Positions 691 through 30,750 of a stretch of 32,000 bases of DNA are shown here, in pieces. This stretch comes from Desulfotalea psychrophila LSv54 (GTDB lineage Bacteria > Desulfobacterota > Desulfobulbia > Desulfobulbales > Desulfocapsaceae), in contig NC_006138.1 in assembly GCF_000025945.1 (NCBI RefSeq), forward strand, positions 1,200,001 to 1,232,000. Reading direction: 5' to 3'. Position 1 is the stretch's first letter; each line of letters begins with the position of its first letter. The translations under genes were made by a program, and so were the position numbers. A model generated the notes under the pieces. The model searched no databases and was not told where the DNA came from. It saw only the letters and a program-made list of their open reading frames with translations.

Positions 691-1079
691 GAATCCTCCA
701 GGATCTTCTCTCTACGTCATAGCCTCACTAAGGGGCAACCATCCGTAGATCGTCGCCTTTTAGGTACATTTCTCGACCGCTCCCTTCCCTTGGTTGCGAC
801 ATTCTCTACCCATGTAGATATATTTTACCTATAAAACAGTGTTCTAGGGGCATTTGCCCCGGTGGAGTTTTTAAATCTCCTGGTCTGGTAGCTTAGGCAT
901 TGATTTTAGGTAATTATTGACCGCTTGAAATTCTTCCGTGCTAGGCATACAATGATTCTTATAATAAAAGACATGGGTGGAGGGAGTACCGTCTTGCGAG
1001 ATGTTGTGGGTGGAGGTTTCTGCGATCTATCCATTGCACTATGTTTAAGGTGCTGTTGCACTTATTGTACTCATTCAGC
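691..1079 (+). repeat. Copy A of the ORF-less TIR element family (left terminus lost, internal deletions, right TIR intact)
   Basis: Shares blocks with copies B-F: CCATCCGTAGATC (739-751), GTGTTCTAG, CGGTGGAGTTTTT, TGATTTTAGGTAATTAT, GGTGGAGGTTTC. Right TIR is CTGTTGCACTTATTGTAC (1053-1070), continuing to ..CAGC at 1079. Confidence 0.8.
925..953 (+). promoter_or_regulatory. Sigma70-like promoter motif inside copy A, pointing at the mscS-family gene
   Basis: TTGAAA (925-930), 17-nt spacer, TACAAT (948-953). The same motif sits at the same place in copies B, C, E and G. Confidence 0.4.
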
Positions 1080-1262
1080 CATTGAAGCATTTAACTCCCC
1101 TGAATAAGCTGAAAGAGTTTCATCAACTCAAACCAAATTTATTTAAGAAGCGACCAACCAATCGTCGGGAACCTAACATGTAAGTTTGTTCATTGCCTAT
1201 CTGGTGATGATTTTTGATCGCTACAACATGTTATGAGATGTTTTTATATAGGGGGCGTGTGG

Positions 1263-3923: not shown

Positions 3924-4117
3924 AAAATCTGATTACCACCGAACTTCAGCCAATTTTAAAAGTTGTCTTGGCATAGTTGCTGTATTAATGGAAACTTTAA
4001 GGAGAGATTTAATCATCCCTTTTAGGTGGAATCTACGGTTAAAGCGTTAACATGTTAGATACCGTGGTAAATGTTTAGGGCGTATCGCATGGTATGCATC
4101 GTCAATGGCAGTTTTAA

Positions 4118-4693
4118 TGTTACGGAGCTGATGTAAAAGAATTCTATCCAAGGCACTCTTTTATTCTGGCAAGATTCTTCTTGTCTGCCCTCTGCGTGAT
4201 AGCTTCACTTAGGGACACCCTCTCCGTAGATCATTGCCTTGTCCTCAAGGTGGGCATATCGTTTGGCGTGGCCCATGTAGTTGTTAGATCAAGTTGCATT
4301 AAGCCGATGTTACAGCCTGTGAAATAGATTCATCCTAGGACCAATCTTTCCCGCAATGCCTTCCCGTGGTTGTCATATTTTCTACTTATGTAGACTGCTT
4401 CCAACCATAAAGCAGTGTTTTATGGATCTCTTGCTGATTTTTCTTTATTGCCTATGATGAGACCTAGGGGTGTTTGATCGGTGGAGTTTCTTGGCCTCCT
4501 GCTCTGGTAATTTGAAGTGTGATTTTAAGTGATTATGGATCGCTTGAGGGTTGTTTGGTGTTAGGGGTATAATGCTTTCTCTTACAAAAAGACATGTGGG
4601 GAGAGGGCGTATCGTCTTGCCAGATGTTGCGGGTGGAGGTTTCTGCCATCTACCCATTGTATTATGCTTAAGACGCTGTTGCACTTTTGCTTG
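4118..4693 (+). repeat. Copy B of the TIR element family (near full length, both termini degenerate)
   Basis: Collinear with copy E from GATGTAAAAGAATTC through CTCCGTAGATCATTGCC, GATCGGTGGAGTTTCTTGG, TTGAAGTGTGATTTTAAG and GGTGGAGGTTTC to a decayed right TIR CTGTTGCACTTTTGCTTG (4676-4693). Confidence 0.8.
4544..4573 (+). promoter_or_regulatory. Sigma70-like promoter motif inside copy B, pointing at ldtD
   Basis: TTGAGG (4544-4549), 18-nt spacer, TATAAT (4568-4573). Confidence 0.35.
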
Positions 4694-5026
4694 TGACTGT
4701 CGCATTAATCTTGATCATTTTTCTATCATCCTTAATATTACGAGGAGCAGGTCCTCCACAATAACGGGGAGAAGCACACTAAGGTTTTTCGTTAAGTGGC
4801 CGTCTTGTTTTTTGTGGTCTGCCAGATTATCATCTTGGGCAGAGTTACGGTCGAAGCCATTGTTTACACCCTTGGCCAGACCAGAAAAACCTTTATTCAT
4901 TCTCTGGCTGGTTTGCTACCTTGTCTATTATTTGAAATGTATTGAAAATTGTTCAAAAAAAACCAATGCAGTAGCCCAATACTTTTATGATTTGTATTCT
5001 GGGTATTAACCCGAGTTGGAATTCTT

Positions 5027-7321: not shown

Positions 7322-7680
7322 ATATAGGTCGTTGCTTCACTAGGGGGCACACCATCCGTAGATCATCGCCTTATTGTTAAGATGAGCTGGTTATCCTGTT
7401 GGTATAATGACATAAAAGCTTCTGGATTTTGTAGAGGGTGGATTATATGATTTCCTGGCTAATAAACTTGCTGTAGACTCCTTTCAACCGTAAAACAGTG
7501 CTCTAGAGATTTCTTGCTAATTTCCTTTATCACCTATAATGAGATCTAGGGGCGCTTGGCCGGTAAGTTTTTTGGCCTCCTGTGCTGATAGTTTGGAGTG
7601 TGGTTTTGGCTGATTATGGATTGCTTGAAATTCTTTTCTGTTAGGGGCATAATCTTTTTGTAACAGAGGCCTGGGACGCT
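7322..7680 (+). repeat. Copy C of the TIR element family (both termini missing)
   Basis: Starts 15 nt after the mepK stop. Contains CACCATCCGTAGATCATCGCC (7350-7370), GTGCTCTAGAGATTTCTTGC and GGTTTTGGCTGATTATGGATTGCTTGAAATTC. It shares a middle variant (TATCCTGTTGGTATAATG.CATAAAAGCTTCTGG) with copy F. Confidence 0.8.
7625..7653 (+). promoter_or_regulatory. Sigma70-like promoter motif inside copy C, pointing at dgkA
   Basis: TTGAAA (7625-7630), 17-nt spacer, CATAAT (7648-7653). The dgkA start lies 220 nt downstream. Confidence 0.4.
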
Positions 7681-8244: not shown

Positions 8245-8395
8245 AATAAATGTATCGGCTTTTCTAAAGATAGGTCGCTGCCCATTAATGTCATACTACA
8301 AGACCATATCTAGGTTCGGGCTGATGCGAGGGAGGCAATTCGTGTGGTATGGGGTAAGGTGCGGAGACCCATCAATCACGACCGGCCATTGACCG

Positions 8396-8490
8396 GAAAC
8401 AAAAAAAGACACTCACAGGAAACCCCCATAAGTGCCTTTACCAGCGGTGGAGGTTGGGGCAAACCGTTGGTCTCTTGACTGTCAGGTGAC
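8396..8490 (-). pseudogene. Degenerate copy of the tRNA-Ala 3' two-thirds plus its downstream terminator tail
   Basis: GGTGGAGGT (8445-8453) equals tRNA positions 17735-17743. TGACTGTCAG (8475-8484) matches TGACTGCCAG in the anticodon arm. By hand, about 36 of 48 positions are identical. Downstream on the minus strand there is a 7-bp hairpin (8407-8413/8429-8435) and the GAAAC-A6-G tail, compared with GAAAC-A7-G at 17682-17694. Confidence 0.55.
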
Positions 8491-8492
8491 TG

Positions 8493-8860
8493 GAATTCTT
8501 GTATGAATTTGATTTAAATCGATGTTGTAGCTTGCAAAATAGATTCATCCCTGGACCAATCTTTCCCGTAATACTCTCCCTCGCTTGCCACATTTTCTAC
8601 TCCTGTAGATCTATTTTGCCTATAAAATAGTGTTCTAGAGATCTCTTGCTAGTTTCCTTTATCGCCTGGGTAGACTTTTCGGATGGGGTCGCTTGAGCGG
8701 TGGAGTTTTTTCTGTCTCTCGTTTTGGCATTTTGAAGTGTGATTTTAGGTAATTATGGAATTCTTGCTCTTTCTTTGCCGTTAGGATGTTGATAGTTTCT
8801 ATTGATGGGGTGGTCGCGCAAATAAGGTTTTTTTGTACTGAATGTTGCACTTATTGCTTG
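8493..8860 (+). repeat. Copy D of the TIR element family (right two-thirds; promoter motif disrupted)
   Basis: Collinear with copy E from GGAATTCTTG.. through GTAGCTTGCAAAA, GTGTTCTAGAGATCTCTTGCTAGTTTCCTTTATCGCCTGGGTAGAC, CGGTGGAGTTTTTT and TTGAAGTGTGATTTTAGG to a decayed right TIR TGTTGCACTTATTGCTTG (8843-8860). A short left-arm match ATAGGTCGCTGC lies at 8270-8281. Confidence 0.8.
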
Positions 8861-9013
8861 AGATCAATCTTTGCCTTTCTTTTTTTTGTTAAAACGCCCT
8901 TGCTTTTGCTGGTGATTTGCGACAGGTTTCAATCCTAACATAAGCTCGGTAGGGGGAGGCCTCTACTGTTTGTATTTTTTAAGGTGCTGTCTAACAGCCA
9001 AGAAGGAGTAGGT

Positions 9014-11161: not shown

Positions 11162-11187
11162 GTTGTATATTCCAGTAGTAAAATTTA

Positions 11188-11221
11188 GCTGGATTAGTGC
11201 CACAAGCTGCTTGAACTCAGC
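11188..11221. repeat. Copy I: 34-nt relic holding only the two termini of the TIR element
   Basis: GCTGGATTAGT + GCCACAAGCTGCTT matches the left end of copy F (GCTGGATTAGTACAATAAGTGCAACAAACTGCTT) with a 9-nt gap. It then runs directly into the right-terminal AACTCAGC. Confidence 0.45.
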
Positions 11222-11775: not shown

Positions 11776-11784
11776 TCGTTCGGA

Positions 11785-11880
11785 TTCTGGCAAGCTCAAT
11801 GATTTTGGCTGATTATGGATTACTTGAAATTTTTTTGTGTTGGGGGCATAATGCTTTTTGTGATAAAAGGCATGGAATGC
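11785..11880 (+). repeat. Copy G: ~95-nt fragment of the TIR element (promoter block only)
   Basis: GATTTTGGCTGATTATGGATTACTTGAAATTTTTTTGTGTTGGGGGCATAATGCTTTTTGTGATAAAAGGCATGG is nearly collinear with copy C 7608-7675. Confidence 0.75.
11824..11852 (+). promoter_or_regulatory. Sigma70-like promoter motif inside copy G, pointing at the HD-domain gene
   Basis: TTGAAA (11824-11829), 17-nt spacer, CATAAT (11847-11852). Confidence 0.4.
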
Positions 11881-11975
11881 ATTCGTATTATTAGAATTTC
11901 GGATGCCAGGTAATCGTCTATAGTCCTGGCAACCAGAGAGGTTTTGCCTCGGTTGTTTTTTATTTATTTGTTAAT

Positions 11976-12859
11976 ATGTACTTTCCTTCAAGTATTCATT
12001 ATATCAGAGAATTCTCTGTTTTTTGGCCAGTGAAGGGTAAAGAAGAGATAAGAGCACAATCAACCGCAATAACTCAGGAGAAAACTGTGCAAGAAAAAGA
12101 ATATGATAATCTCAGAACATGGTTTCTTAAATATACAGATAGTTTTTTAGATTATCCTGAAGCTGATATTGAAAATATTCTTCTTAAAAAAGAGCATACA
12201 TTAAGAGTTTGCCAGGAAATGGAGCTCATTTCAAAAGAGCTTTCTCCTGAAGATAAAATTCTTGCTCTGACTGTGGCTCTCTTACATGATGTAGGCCGGT
12301 TTGATCAGCTTAGAATTTACAGAACTTTTTCTGATTTTAAGTCGGAAGATCATGCTTCATTAGGTGTGAAAATCTTAAAGGAACTGGATTTATTAAAAGA
12401 CCTTGATCCTGTGGACGTTGAATTAATTTTCTTTGCTGTAGAAAATCATAACAAGCCTGAAATTGTTCCTGACTGTTCTTTTCAAACTGAAACAATTACT
12501 AAACTTTTGAGAGATGCAGATAAACTCGATATTTGGCATGTTGTAATCGATTATTACAAGGTCGGTGGAGAATATGATAATCCATCGCTTGTTCACAATC
12601 TTCCTTTCGGTGATGATGTCTGTGCCTCTGTATTTCAGGCTATAGAGAAAAGGGATATCATCTCCTATGATTTATTGGAGACTGTAGTAGATATAAAGAT
12701 TTTTAAATGGGCTGGATTTATCATCTTAACACCAGGAAAGCTCTTGAGCTGGCCTCAGAAAGATCTTATCTTGAAAGTATATTTAATACCTTGCCGCAAA
12801 CTGAACGTATTACCAAAATTTATAATAATATGCAGGCGTATCTTGTGGAGAAATATTAA
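11976..12859 (+). CDS. HD-domain phosphohydrolase, apparently frameshifted near 12707-12722
   Basis: HD motifs H..LRV, LLHDVGR, EDHA, ENHN and DADKLD. The better start is GTG 12087, after AGGAG. After ..DIKIFKWAGF the listed frame turns low-complexity and runs into repeat F. The +2 frame instead reads IYHLNTRKALELASERSYLESIFNTLPQTERITKIYNNMQAYLVEKY and stops at 12857-12859. Confidence 0.65.
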
Positions 12860-12873
12860 GTATAAGCAAAGGC

Positions 12874-13090
12874 GCTGGATTAGTACAATAAGTGCAACAA
12901 ACTGCTTAGGGGGTAAAAGAATTCTACCCAAGTACTTTGCACCTTGGCAAGACTCTTTTTGTGCCCTTACTCTATAGCCTCACTAAGGGCACTTCATCCG
13001 TAGATCATCGTCTTGTCTCCAAGATGAGAGAACGTATCCTGTTGGTATAATGCCATAAAAGCTTCTGGCTCTCGTAGAGACTGGAGCCAT
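12874..13090 (+). repeat. Copy F: left third of the TIR element (left TIR intact)
   Basis: GCTGGATTAGTACAATAAGTGCAACAAAC (12874-12902), a hairpin block (12915-12960) and TTCATCCGTAGATCATCGTC (12993-13012), followed by the C-type middle variant. Homology ends near 13090. Confidence 0.8.
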
Positions 13091-13363: not shown

Positions 13364-13609
13364 TTAAACTATCGATGTATTTGTTTCCTCTAAGCACTTA
13401 TCACAGATGACTCGCTCAGGATTGATTTTTAGAATACTAAATGGAATTTCCTGTTTGCAGATAAAGCATTCTCCAAAGTTCTCGGCATTAATTCGAGCTA
13501 AAGCCGTAGTTAGTCGCTGTACTTGCAGATCATTTACAGGCGATTTCATCTGTTCCAAGAGACTTGTCTTGATCACAGTAAGTTGTTGTTTATTCATTTG
13601 ATCAACCAT
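13364..13609 (-). CDS. TraR/DksA-family C4 zinc-finger protein
   Basis: 81 aa with C-X2-C...C-X2-C (CFICKQEIPFSILKINPERVICDKC) at the C-terminus after a helical N-terminal part. This is the typical small phage/plasmid TraR layout. Confidence 0.6.
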   Translation of the reverse strand: MVDQMNKQQLTVIKTSLLEQMKSPVNDLQVQRLTTALARINAENFGECFICKQEIPFSILKINPERVICDKCLEETNTSIV

Positions 13610-13897
13610 TCTATTAAAATTTAAAACATCTTTAATTGCGTATCATGTTGCAGTCTTCGAGCCATGTCACAGACTGACGTGACTTCTTCAAAATCATTCG
13701 AAGAATGTCGTGTTGTCTGCCAAGCGCTGGAGTCTAACATATCATTCTGTATCACTACAGAAAGCGTTAAGAAAGTCGGTAATAAGGGCAGGAGTTGCTA
13801 GGCTATAGTGGTATATGTATTACGTATAATATATATATACGGTCAAAAGCGTTACCGCAAAAGAGATAAGGCGTCCCCAGGATTTTGTTACAGTCAA

Positions 13898-13917
13898 ACA
13901 ATAAGTGCAACAAACTG
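13898..13917 (+). repeat. Copy H: solitary left-TIR fragment
   Basis: ACAATAAGTGCAACAAACTG is identical 20/20 to copy F 12885-12904. It is not followed by the rest of the left arm. Confidence 0.7.
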
Positions 13918-13931
13918 TGTTGGTGTTGATA

Positions 13932-13941
13932 GGGGGGGGGG
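13932..13941. repeat. Poly-G homopolymer (G10)
   Basis: Ten consecutive G residues lie between the solitary TIR (copy H) and the left end of copy E. Confidence 0.9.
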
Positions 13942-14001
13942 ATTGTTTGGGTGATCGCTGGAGTAGTACAGTAAGTGCAACAGGCTACTTAGAGATGATG
14001 T

Positions 14002-14051
14002 AAAAAGAATCCTGCCCAAGCATCTCTGCACCTAGGCAAGATTCTTTTTTT
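14002..14051 (+). terminator. Terminator-like hairpin in the left arm of copy E
   Basis: AAAAAGAATCCTGCC (14002-14016) pairs with GGCAAGATTCTTTTT (14035-14049), with one mismatch. A T7 run follows on the plus strand and a T5 run on the minus strand. Equivalent but weaker hairpins occur in F (12915-12960) and B (4136-4180). Confidence 0.4.
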
Positions 14052-14119
14052 GTTCCCCTACGCCATAGCCTCCACCATGGGGCACACCATCCGTAGCATC
14101 AAGCATCGCCTTCTCTTCA

Positions 14120-14147
14120 AGGTAAGTGGGGTCGAACCGCTGACTCC
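14120..14147 (-). other. tRNA-Ala-like fragment (variable loop, T-arm, start of acceptor) embedded in copy E
   Basis: AGGTAAGTGGGGTCGAACCGCTGACTCC matches tRNA-Ala 17740-17767 (AGGTAAGCGGGATCGAACCGCTGACCTC) at 24/28 positions, on the same strand as the real tRNA. Confidence 0.6.
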
Positions 14148-14430
14148 CCCCCTTGGAATTGTTAGATAAAATTGCTTTAAGCCGTTGCCGTAGCTTGCAA
14201 AAGTGCACCTTTCCCAAGATGAACCTGTTTGTCCCGTAATATCTCCTTCCTGCCATATGCTCCATTCCTGTAGGCTCCTTTCAGCCAGAAAATGGTGTTT
14301 TAGAGATCTCTTGCCAGTTTCCTTTATCACCTGGGTAGACTTTTGGGCTAGGGGTGCTTGACCGGTGGAGTTTTTTGGTCTCTTGTTCTGATGCTTTGGA
14401 GTGTGATTTTGGCTCATTATTGGTTTTCTC

Positions 14431-14459
14431 TTGAAGTCATTTTATGTTAGGGGCATAGT
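14431..14459 (+). promoter_or_regulatory. Sigma70-like promoter motif inside copy E, pointing at the DUF6499-type gene
   Basis: TTGAAG (14431-14436), 17-nt spacer, CATAGT (14454-14459). The downstream ORF starts at 14683 after AAGGAGG. Confidence 0.35.
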
Positions 14460-14682
14460 GCTTCTTGTAACAAAGGACATGGGCGAAGGGCGTACCGTCT
14501 TGCGAGAAGCTGTGGTGGAGGTTTCCGTGACCTACTCACTACACGCAGCATCATGTTTAAACCGCTGTTGCACTTATTGTACTAACTCAGCAGTAATTGA
14601 GCTAGGTTACAGTAGTAGTCTAAAAAACAGTAACTTGAATAGATGCTCCAGTGCTTTTTATTGACTCTAAGGAGGCTCAAAA

Positions 14683-17682: not shown

Positions 17683-17724
17683 AAACAAAAAAAGGGTCTT
17701 AGAGAAAAAATTCTCTAAGACCCT
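17683..17724 (-). terminator. Rho-independent terminator of tRNA-Ala
   Basis: Perfect 14-bp stem (17693-17706 / 17711-17724) with a 4-nt loop, followed on the minus strand by TTTTTTTGTTT. Confidence 0.85.
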
Positions 17725-17733
17725 TTGCAATGG

Positions 17734-17809
17734 TGGTGGAGGTAAGCGGGATCGAACCGCTGACCTCGTGACTGCCAGTCACGCGCTCTCCCAGCTGAGC
17801 TATACCCCC
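17734..17809 (-). tRNA. tRNA-Ala(GGC): tRNA-Ala (anticodon GGC)
   Basis: The hand-folded 76-nt cloverleaf is GGGGGTA-TA-GCTC-AGCTGGGA-GAGC-G-CGTGA-CTGGCAG-TCACG-AGGTC-AGCGG-TTCGATC-CCGCT-TACCTCC-ACCA. It has the G3:U70 alanine identity pair and an encoded CCA. Confidence 0.9.
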
Positions 17810-17826: not shown

Positions 17827-17855
17827 ATAATAGCGATAATTTCCAGCTATGTCAA
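17827..17855 (-). promoter_or_regulatory. Sigma70 promoter of tRNA-Ala
   Basis: On the minus strand: TTGACA (17855-17850), exactly 17 nt, TATTAT (17832-17827). There is an A/T-rich UP-like tract upstream, and the -10 lies about 17 nt before the mature 5' end. Confidence 0.6.
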
Positions 17856-18132
17856 TAAAAAAAGAGTTCTTTTTTCTCTTCTTTTGCCCGCCTTACCGCT
17901 GTCTCTTTGAACTGTCGTTGTTTTCTGCTTTCTAGGTGAAATTTTTATGGTTATTAGCCCTTGTTTTTTGTTTTACCTGCCCCATTTTGTTTTTCCCTCC
18001 CCTCCTTATATTCGATTGCCAATCAGCGGGGCTTTTGGTATTCTTCAATACTTAACTGGTAGCTTGTCTGCTATCTGTTTTCAATAGATGCTTTTTCATG
18101 CCGTTTGGCAGCTTTTTTAATAGCTTATTTAG

Positions 18133-19209
<1,077 letters not shown>

Positions 19210-19260
19210 GTGAAAAATGTTGGAGACTCTTCCTCATTTCTTAATGACTGGTGGTGACCT

Positions 19261-20139
19261 GTGGCAAAAGAGTCCAAAAATTTTCGGCAAAGTGGGCGGT
19301 GGCGTTTTGTTACTGTTTTAACCCTTACTACCTGTGCTGTTATAGCTGTTGTGCTTGGTCTGGGGACACTTGTGGGTGGTAATTTTGGTGTGCCGCAGAA
19401 GATGACACTGGAAATGGTGGGTTCTCTGCAGCGTAGTGCCACCGTGACTCTTGGCTCTGTTGAGGAAATCTATGAAGATTACCTGAGCTTTGTCTCTGTC
19501 CGGGCAGAAAACAAACGCCTGCAGGCCGATGTCGATAAGTATCTTCTGGAACTTGAGAAATACCGTGAAGGCTATAACAGTTATCTTTCCCTGCAGGAAC
19601 AGCTGAAATTCAAACAATCTCTGTCCTTCAAGTCATTTGCGGCCCGTGTTGTCGGTAAGGGGGGGCTGGGAACCTATCAAACAATAGTGATTGACCTTGG
19701 CCGGTCCTCTGATATTATTGCCGGAATGATTGCCTTTGCCCCGGCGGGAGTTGTGGGCCAGGTTATTCAGGTCAGCGATAGCTATGCCAAGGTACTGCTT
19801 GCCAACGCACCGAGTAGTGCCATTGATGCCATGGTCCAGAAAAGTCGAGTACGCGGAATTCTTAAGGGCAATGGCTCTGCCGGATATACTCTGGAATACG
19901 TGTTGAAAAATGCGGATATTGCTGTTGGCGATGATGTTGTTACTGCTGGAGTGGGTGGGATGTTCCCCACGGGGATGACCCTTGGTAAGGTTAGTGCTGT
20001 GGAAAAAAAACGACTGGGCATGTTTTTGCAAGTAGAGATAGAGCCCAGCGTCGACTTTCAAAGTCTGGAATATGTTTTTGTTGATCCTTCTGATCGTCGA
20101 GAAATTAATGAACTGTTGAACTCTTCAGGAAAAAGGTAA
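19261..20139 (+). CDS. mreC: Rod shape-determining protein MreC
   Basis: N-terminal TM segment, a coiled-coil (ENKRLQADVDKYLLELEKYR) and a C-terminal beta domain (GMFPTGMTLGKV). Positioned between mreB and mreD; GTG start. Confidence 0.85.
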   Translation: MAKESKNFRQSGRWRFVTVLTLTTCAVIAVVLGLGTLVGGNFGVPQKMTLEMVGSLQRSATVTLGSVEEIYEDYLSFVSVRAENKRLQADVDKYLLELEKYREGYNSYLSLQEQLKFKQSLSFKSFAARVVGKGGLGTYQTIVIDLGRSSDIIAGMIAFAPAGVVGQVIQVSDSYAKVLLANAPSSAIDAMVQKSRVRGILKGNGSAGYTLEYVLKNADIAVGDDVVTAGVGGMFPTGMTLGKVSAVEKKRLGMFLQVEIEPSVDFQSLEYVFVDPSDRREINELLNSSGKR

Positions 20140-20144
20140 CCCCT

Positions 20145-20675
20145 ATGTTGACCTTCTTCTTTTGGTGTCTTGGGGTGTTCGTCATTGTCCTGCAAACGAC
20201 GGTACTTCCCTATTTTTTAAGTCCCTGCAATGTGCCCGATCTCTTTTTTATCTTTGTCGCCTTCTGTGCCTATCGTTTTTCTTGGTCGTCAGGTGTTTTT
20301 CTGGTCTTTACCATTGGCTGGATGTTGGATGTCGTCTGTGCTGCCTATATGGGTTTTTTCCCTCTGGAATGTTTATTAGTCTTTGCTGTCTTTAAGGTGC
20401 TTACCATTAATAATCCTGTGCGGATGGTTGTCTATCAACTCCCTTTGGTCGCTCTCGGCTATTTTTTCTGGCTGGTGCTGACCCGTCTTGCCTATTCCCT
20501 TTTGCAGACAAGCTATGTGCCCCACGGAGCAGGAGTGGCTTTGGCTAAAGGCTCTTTTTTGGTATTTGTTGCTGCCCTGCCCTGTTTTGCCCTCTATACC
20601 TTTCTCTATGAGTGGCTGGAAAGAAGAAATATGTGGCTAACTCCTCCCAGGCGTCGGCCGCAAAAACGTTTCTAG
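20145..20675 (+). CDS. mreD: Rod shape-determining protein MreD
   Basis: 176-aa polytopic membrane protein immediately after mreC. Confidence 0.75.
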   Translation: MLTFFFWCLGVFVIVLQTTVLPYFLSPCNVPDLFFIFVAFCAYRFSWSSGVFLVFTIGWMLDVVCAAYMGFFPLECLLVFAVFKVLTINNPVRMVVYQLPLVALGYFFWLVLTRLAYSLLQTSYVPHGAGVALAKGSFLVFVAALPCFALYTFLYEWLERRNMWLTPPRRRPQKRF

Positions 20676-20686
20676 TGAGCGCCCCC

Positions 20687-22561
20687 ATGAAGTCTTCTAA
20701 TAAAAGAATTGAAAATTTGAGCAAGGTAAATCTGACGGCATTGGATTTTCTTCGTAATCGTATATATGTTCCGGCAGGCATTATTGTTGTCTTTTTTGTT
20801 CTTATCATGTTGCGCCTGTGGAACTTGCAGGTGATTAATGGTGATTACTATGCTCAGCGAGCAGAGAGCAATCGAGTGCGTGAACGGCAGATTGCCCCTC
20901 CACGGGGCAGTGTTTTTGATCGTAATGGCACCGAGATTGTCAGTAATCGACCATCCTTTAATGTTGTTTTAATCAGGGAAGGCAAGGGAGATGTGGGCAA
21001 GGTTCTGGAGAGGATAGCGCCTATTCTTGATGAGACCGTTACTGATCTTTGGGGCAGGGTACGGCAGGCAAAGAAGATGGCCCGTTATGAACCGATTGTC
21101 TTGAAAAAAGATGTTGATTGGGAGACCCTTGCCTATCTTGAAAACCACAACTACAATTTTTCCGGGGTGCGTATAGAGGTGCAGCCGGTGCGGGTTTATC
21201 ACTACCAGGATCTGGCAGCCAATGTTATTGGTTATCTTGGATCTATCTCTAAGAAATCTCTGGAGAAGTCAGACCATGCTATCTATCGTGGAGGCGATAT
21301 TGTCGGTAAGAGCGGTATGGAGAAGTTACGCGAGGCAGACCTGCGCGGGCAGAAGGGTCAACGCATTTCAGAGGTCAACGCCAAGGGATTTGAGCAGCGT
21401 CTGCTTAATAAAATAGAACCCTTGCCGGGCAAGGACGTCTATCTCACCATCGACGCGGGGCTACAGCAGACCGCTGAGGCCCTGATGGACGCCTCGCATA
21501 AGGCGGGCGCGGTGGTGGTGATGGAGGTGAAAACGGGGCGTATACTGGTTGCGGCCTCTACGCCCAGTATTCATCTGGAAGATTTTATTGGCGGAATTTC
21601 TCAGAAAAACTGGGCGAAGCTCAGAGATAATACGGAACGAACCCCTCTTATTAATAAGGTGGTGCAGGCCAATTATCCCCCCGGCTCAGTTTATAAAATG
21701 GTAACGGCGATGGCGGCTCTGGCCGAGGGGATCATTGATTCCGAGAGCACAATATACTGTCCGGGGAGCTATCACTTTGGTAATCGTCGTTATGGTTGTT
21801 GGAAGAGATCTGGTCATGGGGATATGAATCTCAAACAGGCCCTTGCCCAGTCCTGTGATGTCTATTTTTATCAGCTGGGAGAACGGCTGGGGGTAGATAA
21901 ACTGGCTGAGTATGCCAAGAAATTTGGTTTGGGTTCAAGGAGCGGTATTGAGATGGAGCATGAGAAGGGCGGTCTTATTCCAACAATGGCCTGGAAAAAA
22001 AGGGTGAAGAAGAGGCGGTGGCAGGATGGTGAAACCCTCTCTGTTGCCATCGGTCAGGGTTTTAATCTGACAACTCCTCTGCAGATATGTTTGATGACCT
22101 CCATGTTAGCAACCCATGGTAAACTCTATAAACCACAGTTGGTGGAGAAGGTGGTTGATTCCAGCGGTCTTCCCGTTGAAACATTTCATCCGATCCTGCT
22201 GCAGGAGCTCAAGGGGCTGGAAAAATATTTTGACATGATTCAGGTTGGAATGGAAGAGGTTGTACAGGGGAAGCGTGGTACGGGGCGGCGGTCAAGGATT
22301 AAGGGTATTGATATAGCGGGTAAGACGGGTAGTGCTCAGGTGGTCCATCTGTCAAAGTCAAAGGGAATGAAGGATAATGAAATTCCCTATAAGGAGCGAG
22401 ATCATGCTTGGTTTACCGGTTTTGCCCCGGCTGATAATCCTGAAATTGCCATTACTGTTTTGGTGGAGCATGGCTTGCATGGAGGTAGTGTGGCGGGTCC
22501 TGTTGCCCGTGGTGTTCTCAAGGAGTACTTTCGTGATCGTCTGCAGGCGGCAAAGAAATAG
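20687..22561 (+). CDS. mrdA: Penicillin-binding protein 2 (elongasome transpeptidase)
   Basis: PBP dimerisation and transpeptidase domains with SVYK (SxxK) and KTGSAQ (KTG) motifs. The ORF is open from 20612, overlapping mreD; ATG 20687 or GTG 20675 is more plausible. Confidence 0.9.
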   Translation: MKSSNKRIENLSKVNLTALDFLRNRIYVPAGIIVVFFVLIMLRLWNLQVINGDYYAQRAESNRVRERQIAPPRGSVFDRNGTEIVSNRPSFNVVLIREGKGDVGKVLERIAPILDETVTDLWGRVRQAKKMARYEPIVLKKDVDWETLAYLENHNYNFSGVRIEVQPVRVYHYQDLAANVIGYLGSISKKSLEKSDHAIYRGGDIVGKSGMEKLREADLRGQKGQRISEVNAKGFEQRLLNKIEPLPGKDVYLTIDAGLQQTAEALMDASHKAGAVVVMEVKTGRILVAASTPSIHLEDFIGGISQKNWAKLRDNTERTPLINKVVQANYPPGSVYKMVTAMAALAEGIIDSESTIYCPGSYHFGNRRYGCWKRSGHGDMNLKQALAQSCDVYFYQLGERLGVDKLAEYAKKFGLGSRSGIEMEHEKGGLIPTMAWKKRVKKRRWQDGETLSVAIGQGFNLTTPLQICLMTSMLATHGKLYKPQLVEKVVDSSGLPVETFHPILLQELKGLEKYFDMIQVGMEEVVQGKRGTGRRSRIKGIDIAGKTGSAQVVHLSKSKGMKDNEIPYKERDHAWFTGFAPADNPEIAITVLVEHGLHGGSVAGPVARGVLKEYFRDRLQAAKK

Positions 22562-22605
22562 GGTCTGTGTGGGCTTTTCTTATTAGAAGTGGGATGGAGG
22601 CGTCG

Positions 22606-23724
22606 ATGTTCAAGGCGGATAGAAGACTTTTTTTACATTTTGATATGATTTTGCTCCTGCTGGTTCTGCTTGTCTCTGGCATAGCCCTGTGTAATCTCTA
22701 CAGTGCCTCTTTTCCCTATGTGGGGTATGGCATGGCTCCATGGTTGAAACAACTCTGTTATTTCGGCGTAATGTTCTTTATGTCTGCCTTTATTTTATGT
22801 GTTGACTATAAGTGGCTGCACCAGATTAACTATATTTTTTATTTTGCTGTTCTGGGGCTCTTGATCTTGGCCGATATAATAGGTAGTAGTGCAGGGGGGT
22901 CTCAGAGATGGATTAATCTCGGTCTCTTTAACCTTCAACCATCTGAAGTCGCTAAGATATCTATGGTTATCTGTCTTGCCAGTTACTATGCCAGAAAAGA
23001 GGTGCTTGACGGTTATACCTTAAAACAGCTGCTTTTCCCCATGGCTATGTTGGGCCTTCCCTTTATCATGATTCTTGCCCAGCCGGATCTTGGCACGGCC
23101 CTTATGCTCGGTATTATTTTTGTTTCGATGACCATGTTTGTTAACCTGCGTTGGTCAACCTATCTGGCCCTCGGAACCTTTGGCATTGGTGCTGCTGTCC
23201 TTGGCTGGTTGTATGTGCTTAAGCCATATCAGCGGCAGAGAATAGAAACATTTTTGCATCCGGACCAGGATCTGATGGGCAGTGGTTATCAGATTTTCCA
23301 ATCGAAAATAGCCATTGGCAGTGGCGGTTACTTTGGTAAGGGTTATGGTGAGGGGCCACAGGGGCAGTTGCATTTCCTGCCGGAGAGGCATACTGATTTT
23401 GCCTTTGCCGTTTTGGGTGAGGAGTGGGGTTTTATAGGGACTTTTGTTTTTTTGGCCCTCTACTTTCTCATGTTACTCTGGGGGCTCTATGTGGCAAGTC
23501 AGGCCAAGGACAGATTTGGTATACTGCTTGCCTACGGGGTTGTGGTTCTTATCTTTTGGCAGGCGGTCATTAATCTCTTTATGGTTCTGGGCTTTTTGCC
23601 CGTGGTAGGTATTCCTCTACCCCTTGTCTCCTATGGTGGTTCTTCTCTGCTTACCACCTGTATCGGCCTGGCCATACTCATGAACGTGCGTATGCGTTCC
23701 TTTGATCCGGTTAATCACTGTTAA
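22606..23724 (+). CDS. rodA: Peptidoglycan glycosyltransferase RodA (SEDS family)
   Basis: FtsW/RodA/SpoVE pattern (QPSEVAKI, PDLGTAL, GSGY, PERHTDFAFAV, PLPLVSYGGSS). GGAGG RBS before ATG 22606; the ORF is open from 22567. Confidence 0.9.
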   Translation: MFKADRRLFLHFDMILLLLVLLVSGIALCNLYSASFPYVGYGMAPWLKQLCYFGVMFFMSAFILCVDYKWLHQINYIFYFAVLGLLILADIIGSSAGGSQRWINLGLFNLQPSEVAKISMVICLASYYARKEVLDGYTLKQLLFPMAMLGLPFIMILAQPDLGTALMLGIIFVSMTMFVNLRWSTYLALGTFGIGAAVLGWLYVLKPYQRQRIETFLHPDQDLMGSGYQIFQSKIAIGSGGYFGKGYGEGPQGQLHFLPERHTDFAFAVLGEEWGFIGTFVFLALYFLMLLWGLYVASQAKDRFGILLAYGVVVLIFWQAVINLFMVLGFLPVVGIPLPLVSYGGSSLLTTCIGLAILMNVRMRSFDPVNHC

Positions 23725-24673
23725 CAGAACTCTCCAGTACCAGCTGGCGTAGGCCTGTGATGAACTGCTCCTGAGTATTAAGGGAGGGGCAGGAGGTCAG
23801 GCGCATGCCCAGCTTTTTTGCCTGTTTCTTATAGAGTATATCTATTTCGTAGAGGGTCTCTACGTGGTCAGAGACAAAGGAGATGGGTACCATAAGGATG
23901 TTTTTTACCCCCTCTTGGGCTAGTTGGATGAGCACATCGGGGGTGGATGGTTCTAACCATTCCACCGGGCCGCTCTTGCTTTGAAAGCAGAGCCTTCCCC
24001 TTTTTCCTGTAATTTCCTCTATTGCCCCGATACTTTGTTTGGTGTGCTCGACGTAAGGGTCACCTGCCTCTATAAAGGAGGTGGGCAGGCTGTGCGCGCT
24101 GTAGACAATTTCTGTTTTTTCTCCGTGGAAGGTAGCCAGGCCTTTTTTGATATTGGCTGCGATGGCTGCGATATAGTCCCTCTGTTTTGGCCAGGATGGG
24201 ATTTCTGTCAGGGGCAGAGAAATATTTTTTTTCTTGAGGGTTTTGTGGAGCTGGGTCAGGGAAGATCCCGTGGTGGCCTTTGAGTAATGTGGATAGAGGC
24301 TGAGGGCAACCAGGCGTTCTACCCCCTTGCTCAGGAGGTAATCAAGGGCCTCGTCGCAGTAGGGTGGCCAGTAGCGCATGGCGTAGGTAACGGTGAAGTT
24401 GCCATGGGCCTGAAGCGATTTTTCCAGGGCCTCTGCCTGCGCCTCCGTTATCTGCTTAAGAGGGGATCCTCCACCTATTCTTTCGTATGTGGCGGCGCTT
24501 TTGGGGGCACGACGTTTGGCGATTAGCCAGGCAAGTGGCTTTTGCATAAGGCGGGGGCCCAGTGGGATGATTTCTCTGTCGGAAAAGAGGTTGTAGAGAA
24601 ATGGCCGAACATCTTTTGTCTGGGTGGGGCCTCCCATATTAAGGAGGATGACACCCGTGGGGATATTTTGCAT
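23711..24673 (-). CDS. hemH: Ferrochelatase
   Basis: 320 aa. VILLNMGGP, FLYNLFSD and SAHSLP..FIE.GDPY motifs. The 3' end overlaps the rodA 3' end by 14 nt (convergent). Confidence 0.9.
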   Translation of the reverse strand: MQNIPTGVILLNMGGPTQTKDVRPFLYNLFSDREIIPLGPRLMQKPLAWLIAKRRAPKSAATYERIGGGSPLKQITEAQAEALEKSLQAHGNFTVTYAMRYWPPYCDEALDYLLSKGVERLVALSLYPHYSKATTGSSLTQLHKTLKKKNISLPLTEIPSWPKQRDYIAAIAANIKKGLATFHGEKTEIVYSAHSLPTSFIEAGDPYVEHTKQSIGAIEEITGKRGRLCFQSKSGPVEWLEPSTPDVLIQLAQEGVKNILMVPISFVSDHVETLYEIDILYKKQAKKLGMRLTSCPSLNTQEQFITGLRQLVLESSVNSD

Positions 24674-25029
24674 ATGTTGGTCTCAAAAGAGGAGAAAATT
24701 CATGGGGAGATCGAGGTACTTATTGCGGATATTTTTAGCTTTTTAACTGCCCTAAAAGCTTGTCTCAGGACTCGCTATACTTAATATACAACAAAAAAAA
24801 ATGAATAGCGAGAAAAGCCGTTGCCGCGGAGTTGATTAGCAATAATCATCTATTTCTTCCTAAGAGTTTGTCCGCTATTTCTTGCGCATCTTCTGGATGG
24901 ACCATATACTGTAAGTAACAGATGGCCAGCAGGGGAGTTGTTGATCCTTGTAGGGGCCTGTGCTCTCAGCAAAGGTGGAGCGCCAACAGCTGTTTGGCGA
25001 ATATTGTCATAGTATAAAGGAGAGACTCT

Positions 25030-25560
25030 ATGGAACTTAAGGTTGAGACTAGGAATGTTGATTTGCGTAAGAGTTGGCAGGAAAAAATTGACACAGAAAG
25101 TGAAAAGCTGATCCGTCACTATGCTAATTTTATTCTTCACTTGCGGGTTGCTATTGAGGCTAACACCCACCATAAGGAAGGTGGTTACGAGGTACGTTTG
25201 GTTGCTTCAGTCCCGCAGGATACAGTGGTAGTAACGCGTAGCGGTGAGGTTGTTCGTGCTGTTTTAACCGAGGCCTTTGATGTGCTTGCCCTGCAGTTAA
25301 AGGAGATTCAGCGTAAAAAGCGTAAGAGTGTCAAGGTTTCAGTAGAAGAAACCGCTGAGAAGGCTGGCATTGTCCGCATGGTATCCCCAGGTGAATCCTA
25401 TGGTTTTATTGTAGAGAGTAATGAGCGTGAGATTTATTTTCATGAAAATGCCCTGAAGGGATTCAGTATTGATGATCTTTCAGAGGGCGACAGCGTATAT
25501 TTTGCAGAGGAGTTTGGGGACAAGGGTCCTCAGGCAACTTGGGTACGTGTAGCCCGTTAA
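25030..25560 (+). CDS. HPF/RaiA (S30AE) ribosome-hibernation domain fused to a C-terminal cold-shock (CSD/S1-like) domain
   Basis: The N-terminal 100 aa follow the HPF/YfiA pattern (MELKVETRNVDL...KLIRHY...EVRLVASVP...AFDVLALQLKEIQRKKR). The C-terminal GIVRMVSPGESYGFIVESNEREIYFHENAL..GDSVYF..GDKGPQATWV is CspA-like. Confidence 0.7.
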   Translation: MELKVETRNVDLRKSWQEKIDTESEKLIRHYANFILHLRVAIEANTHHKEGGYEVRLVASVPQDTVVVTRSGEVVRAVLTEAFDVLALQLKEIQRKKRKSVKVSVEETAEKAGIVRMVSPGESYGFIVESNEREIYFHENALKGFSIDDLSEGDSVYFAEEFGDKGPQATWVRVAR

Positions 25561-25607
25561 ATAGAGGTAGCGTTCCCGGCCATGTGCCTGCGACGATTTA
25601 AAGGAAA

Positions 25608-25643
25608 GAGGCCCTGAATGATTTTGTTCAGGGCCTTTTTTTT
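25608..25643 (+). terminator. Rho-independent terminator after the HPF-CSD gene
   Basis: GAGGCCCTGAA (25608-25618) pairs with TTCAGGGCC (25627-25635), followed by T8. Confidence 0.8.
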
Positions 25644-25752
25644 GCCTTTTTACTATTGCTTTGTTTCCTGTGCAGCTTGCCCATAAATAAGGTATAGCAG
25701 AGATGAAAATAGGGAAGACCTTCTTAATGTTCTTATACGCAGGAGAGATGCG

Positions 25753-28422
25753 GTGAAAAATAATATCTATGTTATTGACGGAAGTGCTTATATTTACAGA
25801 GCATATCATGCAGTTGCCCCCCTGACGACTCGGGAGGGATTGCATACCCATGCAATTCTGGGATTTGTCAATATGATACGTCGGCTTATAAAGGATAAGG
25901 TTCCGGCTCTTATGGTCATTGCCTTTGACAGTCGAGGCCCTGTCTTTCGTCATGAAATGTACCCTAAGTATAAGGCAAATCGTCCGATGATGCCCGAGGA
26001 TCTGCAGGAGCAGATTCCTTATATAAAAGAGTTTGTTAAGGCCTCAGGCCTGTTGCTTTTGGAAGAGGCGGGGGTTGAGGCCGATGACATTATAGCCTCC
26101 ATAGCGAAAAAGTTTGCCAGCGAAGAGTGTGCGGTAACCGTTGTCTCCGGTGACAAGGATCTTCTCCAGCTGGTCGATGCCAATGTTTCAATGTTTGACC
26201 CCATGAAAGACAAGTTGATGGATAGTGTTGCTGTGCATGAAAAGTACAATGTCTATCCTCACCAGCTCCTTGATACCTTTGCCCTGATGGGTGACAGTGC
26301 CGATAATATTCCGGGGGTGCCCGGGGTGGGGCCTAAGACTGCGGAGAAGTTGATCAATGCCCATGGCTCACTTGAGGGGCTCTATGAGAATGTCTCTGGC
26401 ATGAAGCAGTCCAAGATGAAGGAGAAGATTATTGCCAATCGTGATCTGGCCTTTCTCTCCCGTGATCTGATCTCTTTGAAGATGGATGTTGAGATCCCTT
26501 CTGCTCTTCAGGATTATCAGCTTGGTGGGGAGCAGGAGGCGCAGCTCAACGAGCTTTTTACCAAATTAGAATTTAATCGATTCTTAAAGGGTGGCGAGCC
26601 CACAAAAAACAAGAAGGTTGCGGGGACAGGATTCTCCCTGGTCCAGACCTCCGAAGCCCTGGCTCAGATGGCAGCTGTTCTTGGCCATGCTAGTCGTATT
26701 GTGATCGATACCGAGACAACCTCGCTTGATGCCAGAACGGCAGGCCTGGTGGGGATCTCTCTTTGCGCTGAACTTGACAGAGCTTGGTATATCCCTCTTG
26801 CCCATATCGAGGCCACTGGTACACCTGTGCCAGGCCAGTTGCCTATCTCTGAAGTTATGGCAGTTCTGGAGCCTCTTTTGACCTGCGCGGACATCCTTAA
26901 GGTGGGGCATAATCTTAAGTATGACTGGACGGTTTTGAAGATGCAGACTGGGGTGGAGATCTTTCCTCTTGCCGATACCATGGTTGCGGCCCATCTCTTG
27001 GAGAAGGGGCGAACCCTGAAGCTTGATGATCTCTGTGCTGAGATTGGTCTGGAGCTTACCTCCTTCGCAGAGGTGGTGGCAGAGGATAAGCGTGCAGATG
27101 CCTTTGCCTATGTCGCTCTTAAAGAAGCCTGTCACTATAGCTGTGAGGATGTTTATGGGGCTCTGTCTCTGTGGCAGGACTTTGGCGAAAAACTCAGTGA
27201 TAAGGCTCTGGATGGGCTCTTTTATGATGTCGAGATGCCTATTATTCCAGTGCTGGCCAAGATGGAGATAGGGGGGGTCTGTCTGGACAGTACTGTTTTG
27301 GTGGAGCTCGCGGCCCAGTTTGAGGAGCAGATAGGCGAGTTGGCAGCGACCATCTATCAAGAGGTTGGGCATGAGTTTAATATCAGCTCGCCTAAGCAGT
27401 TGGGGGTGATTCTCTTTGAGGAGCTTGGTCTGCCCCATGGGCGTAAGACCAAGACCGGTTTTTCCACCGATGTTAAGGTTATGGAGAAACTGGCCAGCCA
27501 GCATCCTGTTCCGGCCCTTATTCTTAAATACCGGACTATCGCTAAGCTCAAGTCGACCTATGTTGATAAGCTTCTGCTTTTGAAAAATCCTGAAACTGGC
27601 CGTATATATACCTCTTTTAATCAGACTATAACGGCAACGGGCAGGCTCTCCAGCAGTAACCCCAATATGCAGAATATTCCTATTCGTATGGAGGAGGGTA
27701 ATCGCATTCGCAGGGCCTTTGTTCCTGAGGCGGGCAAGGTCTTTCTGGCGGCGGATTATTCGCAGATAGATCTGCGGGTGCTGGCCCATTATTCCGGGGA
27801 TGATGCTCTGACCAGGGCCTTTGCCGCCGGGCAGGATATTCATGCCAGGACAGCAGCAGAGCTCTTTAGTGTCTCAACCATGTTGGTCAATCCTGAGATG
27901 CGTCGGGTGGCCAAGAGTATCAACTTTGGTATTGTTTATGGCATGAGTGCCTTTGGTCTTGCTCAGCAGCTGGGCATTGGCAGAAAGGAGGCCCAGCGCT
28001 TTATTGATCGTTATTTTCACCTCTATGCGGGGGTAAAGCAATTTATGATCGATATCGTAGAGCAGACCCGGGAGAGGGGTTATGCCACAACCCTCTTAGG
28101 TCGTCGGCGGGCAGTGCCTGATATTGATGCGAAAAACAAAGGTATGCGGGAGTTTGCCGAGAGGATGGCAATTAATACTCCCATTCAGGGAACTGCGGCC
28201 GATATTATTAAGTGTGCCATGATTGCCGTGGAAAAAAAATTGGCGGCGGCAGGTCTGGGGGCTAAAATGCTTCTACAGATTCACGATGAACTTGTCTTTG
28301 AAGTGTCCGAGGCGGAGCTTGCGGAGACGAGGGTGGTGGTGCAGGAGGCAATGGAGTCAGCTCTTCAGCTTGATGTGCCTTTGGTTGCCAATATTGAGGT
28401 TGGGCACAGTCTGGCAAAATAG
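25753..28422 (+). CDS. polA: DNA polymerase I
   Basis: 889 aa with 5'-3' exonuclease, 3'-5' exonuclease and Pol A-family polymerase motifs (DYSQIDLRVLAH, QIHDELVFE). GTG start after AGGAGAG. Confidence 0.95.
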   Translation: MKNNIYVIDGSAYIYRAYHAVAPLTTREGLHTHAILGFVNMIRRLIKDKVPALMVIAFDSRGPVFRHEMYPKYKANRPMMPEDLQEQIPYIKEFVKASGLLLLEEAGVEADDIIASIAKKFASEECAVTVVSGDKDLLQLVDANVSMFDPMKDKLMDSVAVHEKYNVYPHQLLDTFALMGDSADNIPGVPGVGPKTAEKLINAHGSLEGLYENVSGMKQSKMKEKIIANRDLAFLSRDLISLKMDVEIPSALQDYQLGGEQEAQLNELFTKLEFNRFLKGGEPTKNKKVAGTGFSLVQTSEALAQMAAVLGHASRIVIDTETTSLDARTAGLVGISLCAELDRAWYIPLAHIEATGTPVPGQLPISEVMAVLEPLLTCADILKVGHNLKYDWTVLKMQTGVEIFPLADTMVAAHLLEKGRTLKLDDLCAEIGLELTSFAEVVAEDKRADAFAYVALKEACHYSCEDVYGALSLWQDFGEKLSDKALDGLFYDVEMPIIPVLAKMEIGGVCLDSTVLVELAAQFEEQIGELAATIYQEVGHEFNISSPKQLGVILFEELGLPHGRKTKTGFSTDVKVMEKLASQHPVPALILKYRTIAKLKSTYVDKLLLLKNPETGRIYTSFNQTITATGRLSSSNPNMQNIPIRMEEGNRIRRAFVPEAGKVFLAADYSQIDLRVLAHYSGDDALTRAFAAGQDIHARTAAELFSVSTMLVNPEMRRVAKSINFGIVYGMSAFGLAQQLGIGRKEAQRFIDRYFHLYAGVKQFMIDIVEQTRERGYATTLLGRRRAVPDIDAKNKGMREFAERMAINTPIQGTAADIIKCAMIAVEKKLAAAGLGAKMLLQIHDELVFEVSEAELAETRVVVQEAMESALQLDVPLVANIEVGHSLAK

Positions 28423-28433
28423 ACCGTTTCTCA

Positions 28434-28460
28434 GGGGAGAAGGGTAGCCTCCTTCTCCCC
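28434..28460. other. 10-bp hairpin in the convergent polA/gltA gap
   Basis: GGGGAGAAGG (28434-28443) pairs with CCTTCTCCCC (28451-28460). There is no clear T-run on either strand, so terminator status is uncertain. Confidence 0.4.
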
Positions 28461-28479
28461 GTTGAGATTATTTCGTAGT

Positions 28480-29772: not shown

Positions 29773-30087
29773 GATACACCTTTAGGTCGAGCGTTTAGAC
29801 ACGCATTTTTGGATATTTCCAACGGTTTGTGGTAGCGCCTGGCAGGGTTGTGTGGAAAATCTCTGAGAGAAGGCGACTGTTGGATGAACAAACTAGGAGT
29901 CTTTGTAGACAGTTAGGTTCTGGGCTTGTGCTTTTTGCAGAAAGCACACATACATTGTATCAAATTTGTAGCTATTATTGGAATATATTTTACAAAAAAA
30001 GCATTATTTTTCAAAAAAGGTATCTTTATGGTTAAGGATGGGAAGTCCCGACAGGCAGATCTGTATGGGTGGCGGAGGAAGGTCTTG

Positions 30088-30750
30088 ATGGACGAGGTGA
30101 CGGTGTACCCTGTCTGTTGCGAACAACTTTCCGCTGGAAGATCGGATAAGGAGTGGTTGGATAATGTTTTGGCGGGCGGAGCAAAGATTGTTCAGCTTCG
30201 GGATAAAAAAAGTGATGATCGTCTTTTGCTTGAGAAGGCAAAATATTTTCGGGAGAAAACCCGGGAGGCGGGGGCGCTTTTTTTGATAAATGACAGATTT
30301 GATATTGGCCTTTTGGCGGATTCCGACGGTATTCATGTGGGTCAGGGAGATCTGCCCCCCGAGGAGATTCGCCGTCTTACCCCAGATTGGATTATTGGTC
30401 AATCCTGTAATGATCTGGCAGAGGTGGAAGCCCTGGGTGCTCAGGTGCAGGCGGGTTCCTCGGCTGTTGATTATTATAATATTGGTCCAATTTATAGAAC
30501 GGATACCAAGGAGGGTTTGCATACCTTTTTGGGCGCCGGAGACATCCAGCAGATATCTGCAGCCTGCCCTCTGCCCTTTACGGTGATGGGTGGTATAAAG
30601 TGGGATCATATTCCAGAGCTGGCGGCTGCCGGGGTACGGCGTATGGCCGTGGTGACGGCAATAAGTATGGCGGCTGATATGCAGGCAGAGACAAGGCGAT
30701 GGATAGATGAGATTAGGCGTGTGACCACCCTGCCTGTTAACTCGTTATAG
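30088..30750 (+). CDS. thiE: Thiamine-phosphate synthase
   Basis: ThiE pattern (VQLRDKK, LINDRFDIGLLADSDGIHVGQGDLP, GGI). ATG 30088 follows GGAGGAAGG and gives about 220 aa. The ORF is open from 29926, but the extension looks non-coding. Confidence 0.85.
   Translation: MDEVTVYPVCCEQLSAGRSDKEWLDNVLAGGAKIVQLRDKKSDDRLLLEKAKYFREKTREAGALFLINDRFDIGLLADSDGIHVGQGDLPPEEIRRLTPDWIIGQSCNDLAEVEALGAQVQAGSSAVDYYNIGPIYRTDTKEGLHTFLGAGDIQQISAACPLPFTVMGGIKWDHIPELAAAGVRRMAVVTAISMAADMQAETRRWIDEIRRVTTLPVNSL

Follow-up and report, generated by a model that had tools for sequence, protein, structure and literature searches.

Sigma-70-like promoters are established in the Correia elements (CREE/NEMIS) of Neisseria and have been noted in other MITEs, namely MITEAba12, BrickBuilt, QMITE1 and SonMITE_1 (PMC10969869). 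Like the repeats described here, Correia elements and the other promoter-bearing MITEs are non-autonomous elements bounded by terminal inverted repeats (TIRs), lie in intergenic DNA and usually sit just before genes (PMC10969869). Their promoters can drive the neighbouring gene (PMC10969869), whereas our repeats carry a candidate promoter. The two also differ in build. Correia-type MITEs measure about 100–200 nt and carry the promoter in or at the TIR, whereas the element described here measures about 620 nt, has TIRs of the IS30 type, survives in old, truncated copies and has its putative promoter about 125–150 nt inside one end.

Insertion sequences (IS) offer a second comparison. ISEcp1 has a proven outward promoter (Pout), TTGAAA-18-TACAAT; the ends of IS30-family elements can activate neighbouring genes, and ISAba125, a member of that family, donates a −35 hexamer (PMC9330008). 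Both are autonomous elements with measured activity under antibiotic selection, whereas our element is non-autonomous and its promoter a candidate. ISAba125 supplies only a −35 at its very end, in contrast to the complete candidate promoter that our element holds within non-IS interior DNA.

We analyzed a 32,000-nt window of the Desulfotalea psychrophila LSv54 chromosome, in which a preliminary description had reported an outward promoter motif shared by copies of a repeated element. The closest relatives that we found belong to the Desulfocapsaceae. The feature under study, 925–1262, is the right-hand part of one repeat copy, copy A. Our analysis showed a family of elements with IS30-type ends and no coding capacity, carrying the motif at homologous positions. 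The activity of the motif as a promoter, and the role of the family as a portable promoter, are plausible. With about even confidence, we read 925–1262 as the right part of a fossil MITE with IS30-type TIRs whose ancestor carried an inherited outward sigma-70-type promoter.

The repeat family and its IS30-type ends

One non-coding repeat family, with a unit of about 620 nt, occupies nearly all intergenic gaps from 0.6 to 14.6 kb in the window. We distinguished seven copies or fragments, all on the plus strand and thus in one shared orientation, the same as that of the genes. Their pairwise identity is about 67–88%, with many indels, and most are truncated; only copy E2 (13956–14591; TIRs at 13965–13982 and 14566–14583) keeps both element ends. 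Copy A (708–1079) is left-truncated and retains part of segment I (719–759), part of segment III, the promoter-like motif and the right arm, which ends in an exact right TIR at 1054–1071. Copy B (4100–4702) is near full length with degenerate TIRs. Copy C (7322–7678) comprises segment I, a variant segment IIb, segment III and the promoter-like motif, without a right arm. Copy D (8489–8862) retains segments IIa and III together with degenerate versions of the motif and the right TIR, and it has suffered an internal deletion. Copy G (11783–11878) is a remnant of about 95 nt that holds only an upstream box, the promoter-like motif and about 25 nt downstream of it. Copy E1 (12873–13085) is a left part only (segments I and IIb) with an exact left TIR at 12882–12899, and it overlaps the 3′ end of an ORF encoding an HD-domain protein.

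The TIR, AGTACAATAAGTGCAACA, occurs five times in the window against 0.01 expected. In a scan of one genome per species, the same 18-mer was found mainly in Desulforhopalus, Desulfopila, Desulfotalea and Desulfosediminicola, and in Desulforhopalus and Desulfosediminicola it forms the ends of insertion sequences of 1.1–1.4 kb. The C-terminus of the IS transposase (...GKRVALIT*) falls inside the right repeat (IRR). The transposase of one such IS, in Desulfosediminicola flagellatus (L033, 3390–4475), scores 280 bits on NF033563, the NCBIfam model 'IS30 family transposase'. The terminal 26–30 nt of these Desulfocapsaceae IS (IRL, GCTGGAGTAGTACAATAAGTGCAACAG) are nearly identical to those of our element. 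In contrast to the IS, the window element has no transposase and no interior homology to them, and both of its ends resemble IRL.

Similarity between the window elements and the Desulfocapsaceae IS, by blastn and nhmmer, is restricted to the TIRs. When the window was searched by tblastn with two intact IS30 transposases, no match fell below E = 0.6, and no Pfam domain was found in the element ORFs. A likeness noted by eye between GGTGGAGGTTTC in the element arms and the motif P-L-E-V-F would have pointed to a transposase pseudogene; it was unsupported, and we discarded this idea. In type II MITEs, only the TIRs are homologous to the parent element (PMC10969869). Since the homology to the IS stops at the TIRs and no transposase is present, the repeat fits a non-autonomous type II MITE with IS30-family TIRs, although its MITE status is imperfect.

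Its size is on the large side. MITEs are typically under 500 bp, and the element, at about 620 nt from TIR to TIR (13965–14583), lies above that usual range. E622, a 611-bp element of Pseudomonas syringae (PMC10969869), shows that bacterial MITEs can reach about 600 bp; it differs from ours in its unrelated sequence and other parentage and is known for cargo mobilisation rather than for promoter activity.

One imperfection concerns the target site. IS30 insertion duplicates 2 bp of the target. The IS in L033 has such a 2-bp duplication (CG/CG), whereas E2, the only two-ended copy, has none (flanks TC and AG). Target duplications are expected to be lost in old copies (PMC10969869). A close cognate transposase was likewise missing: no protein of the LSv54 chromosome was among the 120 best homologues of the L033 transposase (at least 58% identity), and remoter ones are possible.

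Searches for further copies gave none. A pattern for the element interior had 0 matches in a scan of genome contigs, a pattern scan of metagenomes returned eight matches, all attributable to chance, and a plasmid search found none. A scan with the TIR found only IS30 elements and chance matches, and an element ORF that is annotated, though spurious, matched only itself in a protein search. The orthologous loci of relatives (71–84% identity in the M15 peptidase) carry no element, and they are too distant or too short for a before-and-after comparison. The count stands at seven or eight copies and relics, all inside 15 kb of the one 32,000-nt window examined. Given the truncations, the lack of a target-site duplication, the lack of other copies and the lack of a close cognate transposase, the window copies look like fossils, that is, old and immobile relics.

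Several further features of the cluster were seen. At 11186–11220, GCTGGATTAGTGCCACAAGCTGCTTGAACTCAGCC appears to fuse a left-end tip to a right-end tip, and it looks like an element copy that has been almost wholly deleted. A stretch of 1.1 kb holds three left-end TIRs, all in direct orientation (12882–12899, 13895–13912 and 13965–13982). IS30 inserts beside inverted repeats of its own and does so in a strictly defined orientation (PMC9333248), and insertion of this type may explain the three direct left ends and part of the local clustering. The uniform orientation of the family need not reflect selection: it could come from orientation-specific targeting of inverted repeats of the IS30 type (PMC9333248), or from local duplication. 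Just upstream of E2 lie a run of ten G (13931–13940) and a (TA)n tract (about 13826–13840), which are potentially slippage-prone.

In Desulforhopalus, the same IS30-type TIRs enclose units of 660–760 nt with quite different interiors (L042, 2882–3639; L021, 1–664), one of which apparently encodes a small membrane protein. These differing units suggest that IS30-type ends have formed non-autonomous cassettes repeatedly.

tRNA-Ala fragments and the low-GC region

All element copies lie in the first 17.7 kb of the window, which has a GC content of 36–44% and abuts the 3′ side of a tRNA-Ala gene (17734–17809, minus strand; terminator 17691–17726). From 18000 to 32000 the GC content is 47–51%, and the genes are housekeeping ones: mreB, mreC, PBP2, rodA, hemH (ferrochelatase), polA, gltA (citrate synthase) and thiE. 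The cargo of the low-GC region includes Gp49/HigB-like, DksA/TraR-like and RovC-like genes. The DksA/TraR-like one is an 81-aa ORF on the minus strand, in unique DNA between E1 and E2 (13364–13609), with a C4 zinc finger like that of DksA/TraR; it matched NCBIfam DksA_like at E = 2.4e-7, under the family cut-off.

Pieces of the tRNA-Ala gene recur within this region. A decayed duplicate of its terminator and 3′ part, antisense and reaching as far as the anticodon loop, occupies 8389–8485 on the plus strand and abuts copy D; its alignment score is 39, against 25 for the best of 500 shuffles. Inside E2, 14119–14143 matches the acceptor and T-arm of tRNA-Ala at 23 of 25 positions, also antisense. 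A tRNA-like stretch in copy B was not significant. The antisense pieces resemble att-type remnants left by tRNA-targeted integration, or else flanking DNA that the MITE captured.

These findings raise a different origin for the repeat, in which the repeat or its inner part (IIa, III, promoter, IV) is not primarily a transposon but the conserved end of small islands inserted one after another at the tRNA-Ala 3′ end; the IS30 TIRs would then be secondary, and the promoter would be the island's own cargo or outward promoter. The decayed terminator and 3′ part before copy D, oriented as in the real gene, the match in E2, the confinement of all copies to the lower-GC 17.7 kb next to tRNA-Ala and the nature of the cargo all agree with it. 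As expected of a tRNA-targeted island, the 3′ part of the tRNA is directly repeated, in the two pieces at 8389–8485 and 14119–14143, but no integrase domain or remnant was present among the ORFs of the 17.7-kb region. Against this origin, furthermore, E2 is a clean TIR-to-TIR unit, segment IV is always terminated by the right TIR, and copies A, B and C sit next to conserved native genes, the ldtD–M15 synteny holding in element-free relatives; the non-significance of the stretch in B also counts against it. We consider an island-end origin quite improbable, a minor rival to the MITE, and one that leaves our assessment of the promoter motif unchanged.

The promoter-like motif: ancestry, chance and selection

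All five motif sites listed in the preliminary description were found at their coordinates, on the plus strand: TTGAAA-17-TACAAT in A (925–953), TTGAGG-18-TATAAT in B (4544–4573), TTGAAA-17-CATAAT in both C (7625–7653) and G (11824–11852), and TTGAAG-17-CATAGT in E2 (14431–14459). Four of them match the consensus at 10 of 12 positions and the E2 site at 8 of 12. The repeat family is a true one and the five sites share the same columns of its alignment, and so the claim of positional homology was borne out. Their hexamers are near TTGACA/TATAAT, with A2 and T6 of the −10 present in all five copies, and their spacers (17, 18, 17, 17 and 17 nt) lie within the 16–18 nt of sigma-70 promoters. In A, C, G and E2, no other sigma-70-like site on the way from the element to the next start codon is as good. 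Copy D had been said to have lost the spacing. It instead keeps an 18-nt spacer and has lost the hexamers (TTGCTC-18-GTTGAT, 8764–8793, plus strand), and it no longer qualifies as a sigma-70 site. As a reference, the real tRNA-Ala promoter in the window is TTGACA-17-TATTAT (17827–17855, minus strand; 11 of 12), its −10 ending 18 nt before the mature 5′ end of the tRNA. The position of this site suggests that the host polymerase uses the canonical sigma-70 consensus. The hexamers of copy A are identical to those of the ISEcp1 Pout (PMC9330008).

We then asked how far chance, descent and selection account for the motif. When the columns of the conserved 115-column block were shuffled, a site of at least 9/12 in at least four copies arose in 0.23% of 3000 shuffles (P about 0.002), and shuffles of the whole right-half alignment gave such a shared site in 0 of 1000. 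The motif thus exceeds what base composition yields, which indicates that the ancestral element truly had a good promoter-like sequence. In our model, the ancestor carried a sigma-70-type promoter with the consensus TTGAAA-17-CATAAT, about 125–150 nt inside the right end and facing outward, and every descendant that retained the segment, except D, would have inherited it.

That the hexamers were kept although their surroundings diverged, as the preliminary description held, was not supported. Across the six copies, 26 of 85 equivalent placements in the block score as well; without D, 7 of 85 match the hexamer conservation. The best-conserved stretch is an AT-rich 20-nt box, TGATTTTRGNTNATTATGGA, which lies just upstream of the −35 and ranks above the hexamers. 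Readings of this box as a sigma-54 site, a Fur box or an UP element were tried by eye, and none gave a convincing match. The hexamers carry about 1.4 substitutions per 12 positions (about 12% per site), which equals the neutral decay expected of the block. Motif retention therefore appears to reflect mostly shared descent.

The same figures suit a reading in which the elements are neutral relics: the hexamers are accidental or leftover and kept by ancestry, any initiation at them is weak or of no consequence, and the genes are transcribed from other promoters or by read-through. By our own base-rate estimates, the window has roughly one site of 10/12 for every 9 kb of strand, and about one in eight elements of this size would hold such a site somewhere on either strand by chance. 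Copy D has lost the motif, and the DUF945 gene downstream of it also has no recognisable consensus promoter, which implies that genes here need no site that a scan can detect. The genes between 1 and 16 kb are all co-directional, so that transcription could also reach them by read-through from upstream.

Other observations fit this neutral reading poorly. In the five copies, the five positions most critical for sigma-70 (the −35 TTG and the −10 A2 and T6) never vary, against 44% invariant columns in the block (P about 0.014), and all seven substitutions fall at less critical hexamer positions (P about 0.017); both tests are post hoc and exclude D, and only six copies are informative, all related by descent. 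The 17/18-nt spacing survives indels directly on both sides, in contrast to a minus-strand motif at the left end, whose spacing has drifted (18, 19 and 20). The motif is improbable from the composition of the block, as the shuffles indicate. Copies G and C retain the promoter module despite having lost the remaining right side. Copy G, reduced to 95 nt with only the promoter-like module, parallels the ISEcp1 remnant of about 200 bp upstream of blaOXA-232 and resembles the 'promoter fixation' of IS remnants (PMC9330008). Finally, near-consensus sequences are usually active, and the outward promoter of ISEcp1 has the same hexamers (PMC9330008). Taken together, the pattern at the critical positions hints at selection for promoter function, and we regard the neutral relic as possible though somewhat unlikely, and keep the inherited outward promoter as our preferred reading.

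Two other promoter-like sites were noted in the family. Copies C and E1 have in common a variant inner segment (7392–7442 and 13035–13085; 88% identical) that holds an extended −10, TGGTATAAT, on the plus strand at 7400–7408 and 13043–13051; on its sequence, this is a second promoter-like site peculiar to the C/E1 sub-family. The left-end outward motif on the minus strand reads TTGCCA-18-TAGAAT in E1 (12950–12921) and recurs near 4172–4141 in B (spacing 20) and 14039–14009 in E2 (spacing 19). With spacings of 18, 19 and 20 it is not conserved; if active, it would fire antisense to the upstream gene. An IS30-type junction promoter across joined TIRs was considered by eye and set aside on account of its unfit spacing.

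Downstream genes, terminator-like hairpins and the portable-promoter reading

In the copies that keep the region, D aside, the motif faces out of the element and is co-directional with the next gene, as had been described. The reported distance of 200–450 nt from the −10 to the gene is too narrow, as only 124 nt separate the −10 from the start codon at G. A right arm shared by all transcripts as a 5′ leader had also been proposed. Such an arm follows the motif in A, B and E2, but not in C and G, where homology is lost about 20 nt past the −10; G keeps essentially the promoter module only, and D has an internal deletion.

Under the inherited-promoter model, RNA polymerase would start about 7 nt past each −10, near 960, 4580, 7660, 11859 and 14466, and the transcripts would run out of the element toward the co-directional gene, whose transcription they would supplement or provide. 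We found no transcript-mapping or transcription start site data for D. psychrophila in the searchable literature. Terminator-like hairpins followed by T-runs stand in the path at two copies, both on the plus strand. One, TTTTTGAT (1190–1218, −8.3 kcal/mol), lies between copy A and the start of the MscS gene (ATG at 1263 or 1233). The other, TTTTTATT (11929–11964, −11.7 kcal/mol), ends 12 nt before the ATG at 11976 of the HD gene. A weaker hairpin of this kind precedes the gene after D, and no convincing terminator was found before the gene at E2, B or C. At G, and possibly at A, much of the transcription may therefore end at the hairpin ahead of the gene.

This arrangement invites the view that the promoter yields short element RNAs, such as sRNAs or attenuated leaders, rather than mRNAs: an RNA of about 105 nt at G (start near 11859, end near 11964) and a long leader to 1218 at A. 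The two hairpins with T-runs accord with it, MITE-encoded sRNAs are known (PMC10969869), and the right arm folds somewhat better than its shuffles, if modestly (z of −2.5, −2.2 and −1.2). However, the three right-arm sequences show no compensatory pairs in the main hairpin, and Rfam yielded nothing for the right arm, whether at gathering thresholds or with E relaxed to 5. Convincing terminators are lacking ahead of the genes at E2, B and C, and the sequence past the promoter differs among copies. We give short RNAs as the main product only a slim chance. A conserved structured RNA, whether leader or sRNA, was rejected on the lack of covariation and of an Rfam match; the left arm showed no convincing covariation either.

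A coding role for the region after the promoter was rejected as well. A frame for a small Cys-rich protein is open in A, B and E2, but it has no Shine-Dalgarno sequence and no Pfam match. Its amino-acid identity of about 57% is the neutral expectation at 82% DNA identity, and this neutral evolution, together with a partial frame-shift in E2, argues that the frame is non-coding.

The elements have left marks on the annotated proteins of the locus. ORFs 565–834, 4551–5009, 14032–14265 and 14058–14417 lie wholly or largely within elements and yet stand in databases as LSv54 proteins, probably through spurious gene calling. In the HD-domain ORF (11976–12977), the final ~35 codons come from the left end of E1 (12873–12977), so the insertion appears to have remodelled the C-terminus of the protein. 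The ATG at 11976 has no Shine-Dalgarno sequence and lies 12 nt past the hairpin, and the true start of the HD gene may therefore be elsewhere.

A more far-reaching possibility is that the burst of the now fossil MITE, possibly in combination with serial integration at tRNA-Ala, placed a promoter and the TGATTTTRGNTNATTATGGA box before unrelated genes and thereby created a co-regulated mini-regulon, with the remnants G and C kept by selection. Its targets would be mostly envelope-related: the MscS channel, LdtD with the M15/YcbK-type peptidase, DgkA and the HD protein. We consider such an exaptation improbable.

Overall, the reported observation is largely right, and its interpretation as a portable promoter is plausible, precedented and partly supported. 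The concept itself is unchanged, because Correia elements and the outward promoters of insertion sequences have already established it. For the deposited genome, the repeats explain several spurious 'hypothetical protein' calls and mark likely transcription start regions. If the motif fires, one burst of a mobile element would have rewired several neighbouring genes in a psychrophilic sulfate reducer, and an IS30-derived example from the Desulfobacterota would join the short list of portable-promoter MITEs.
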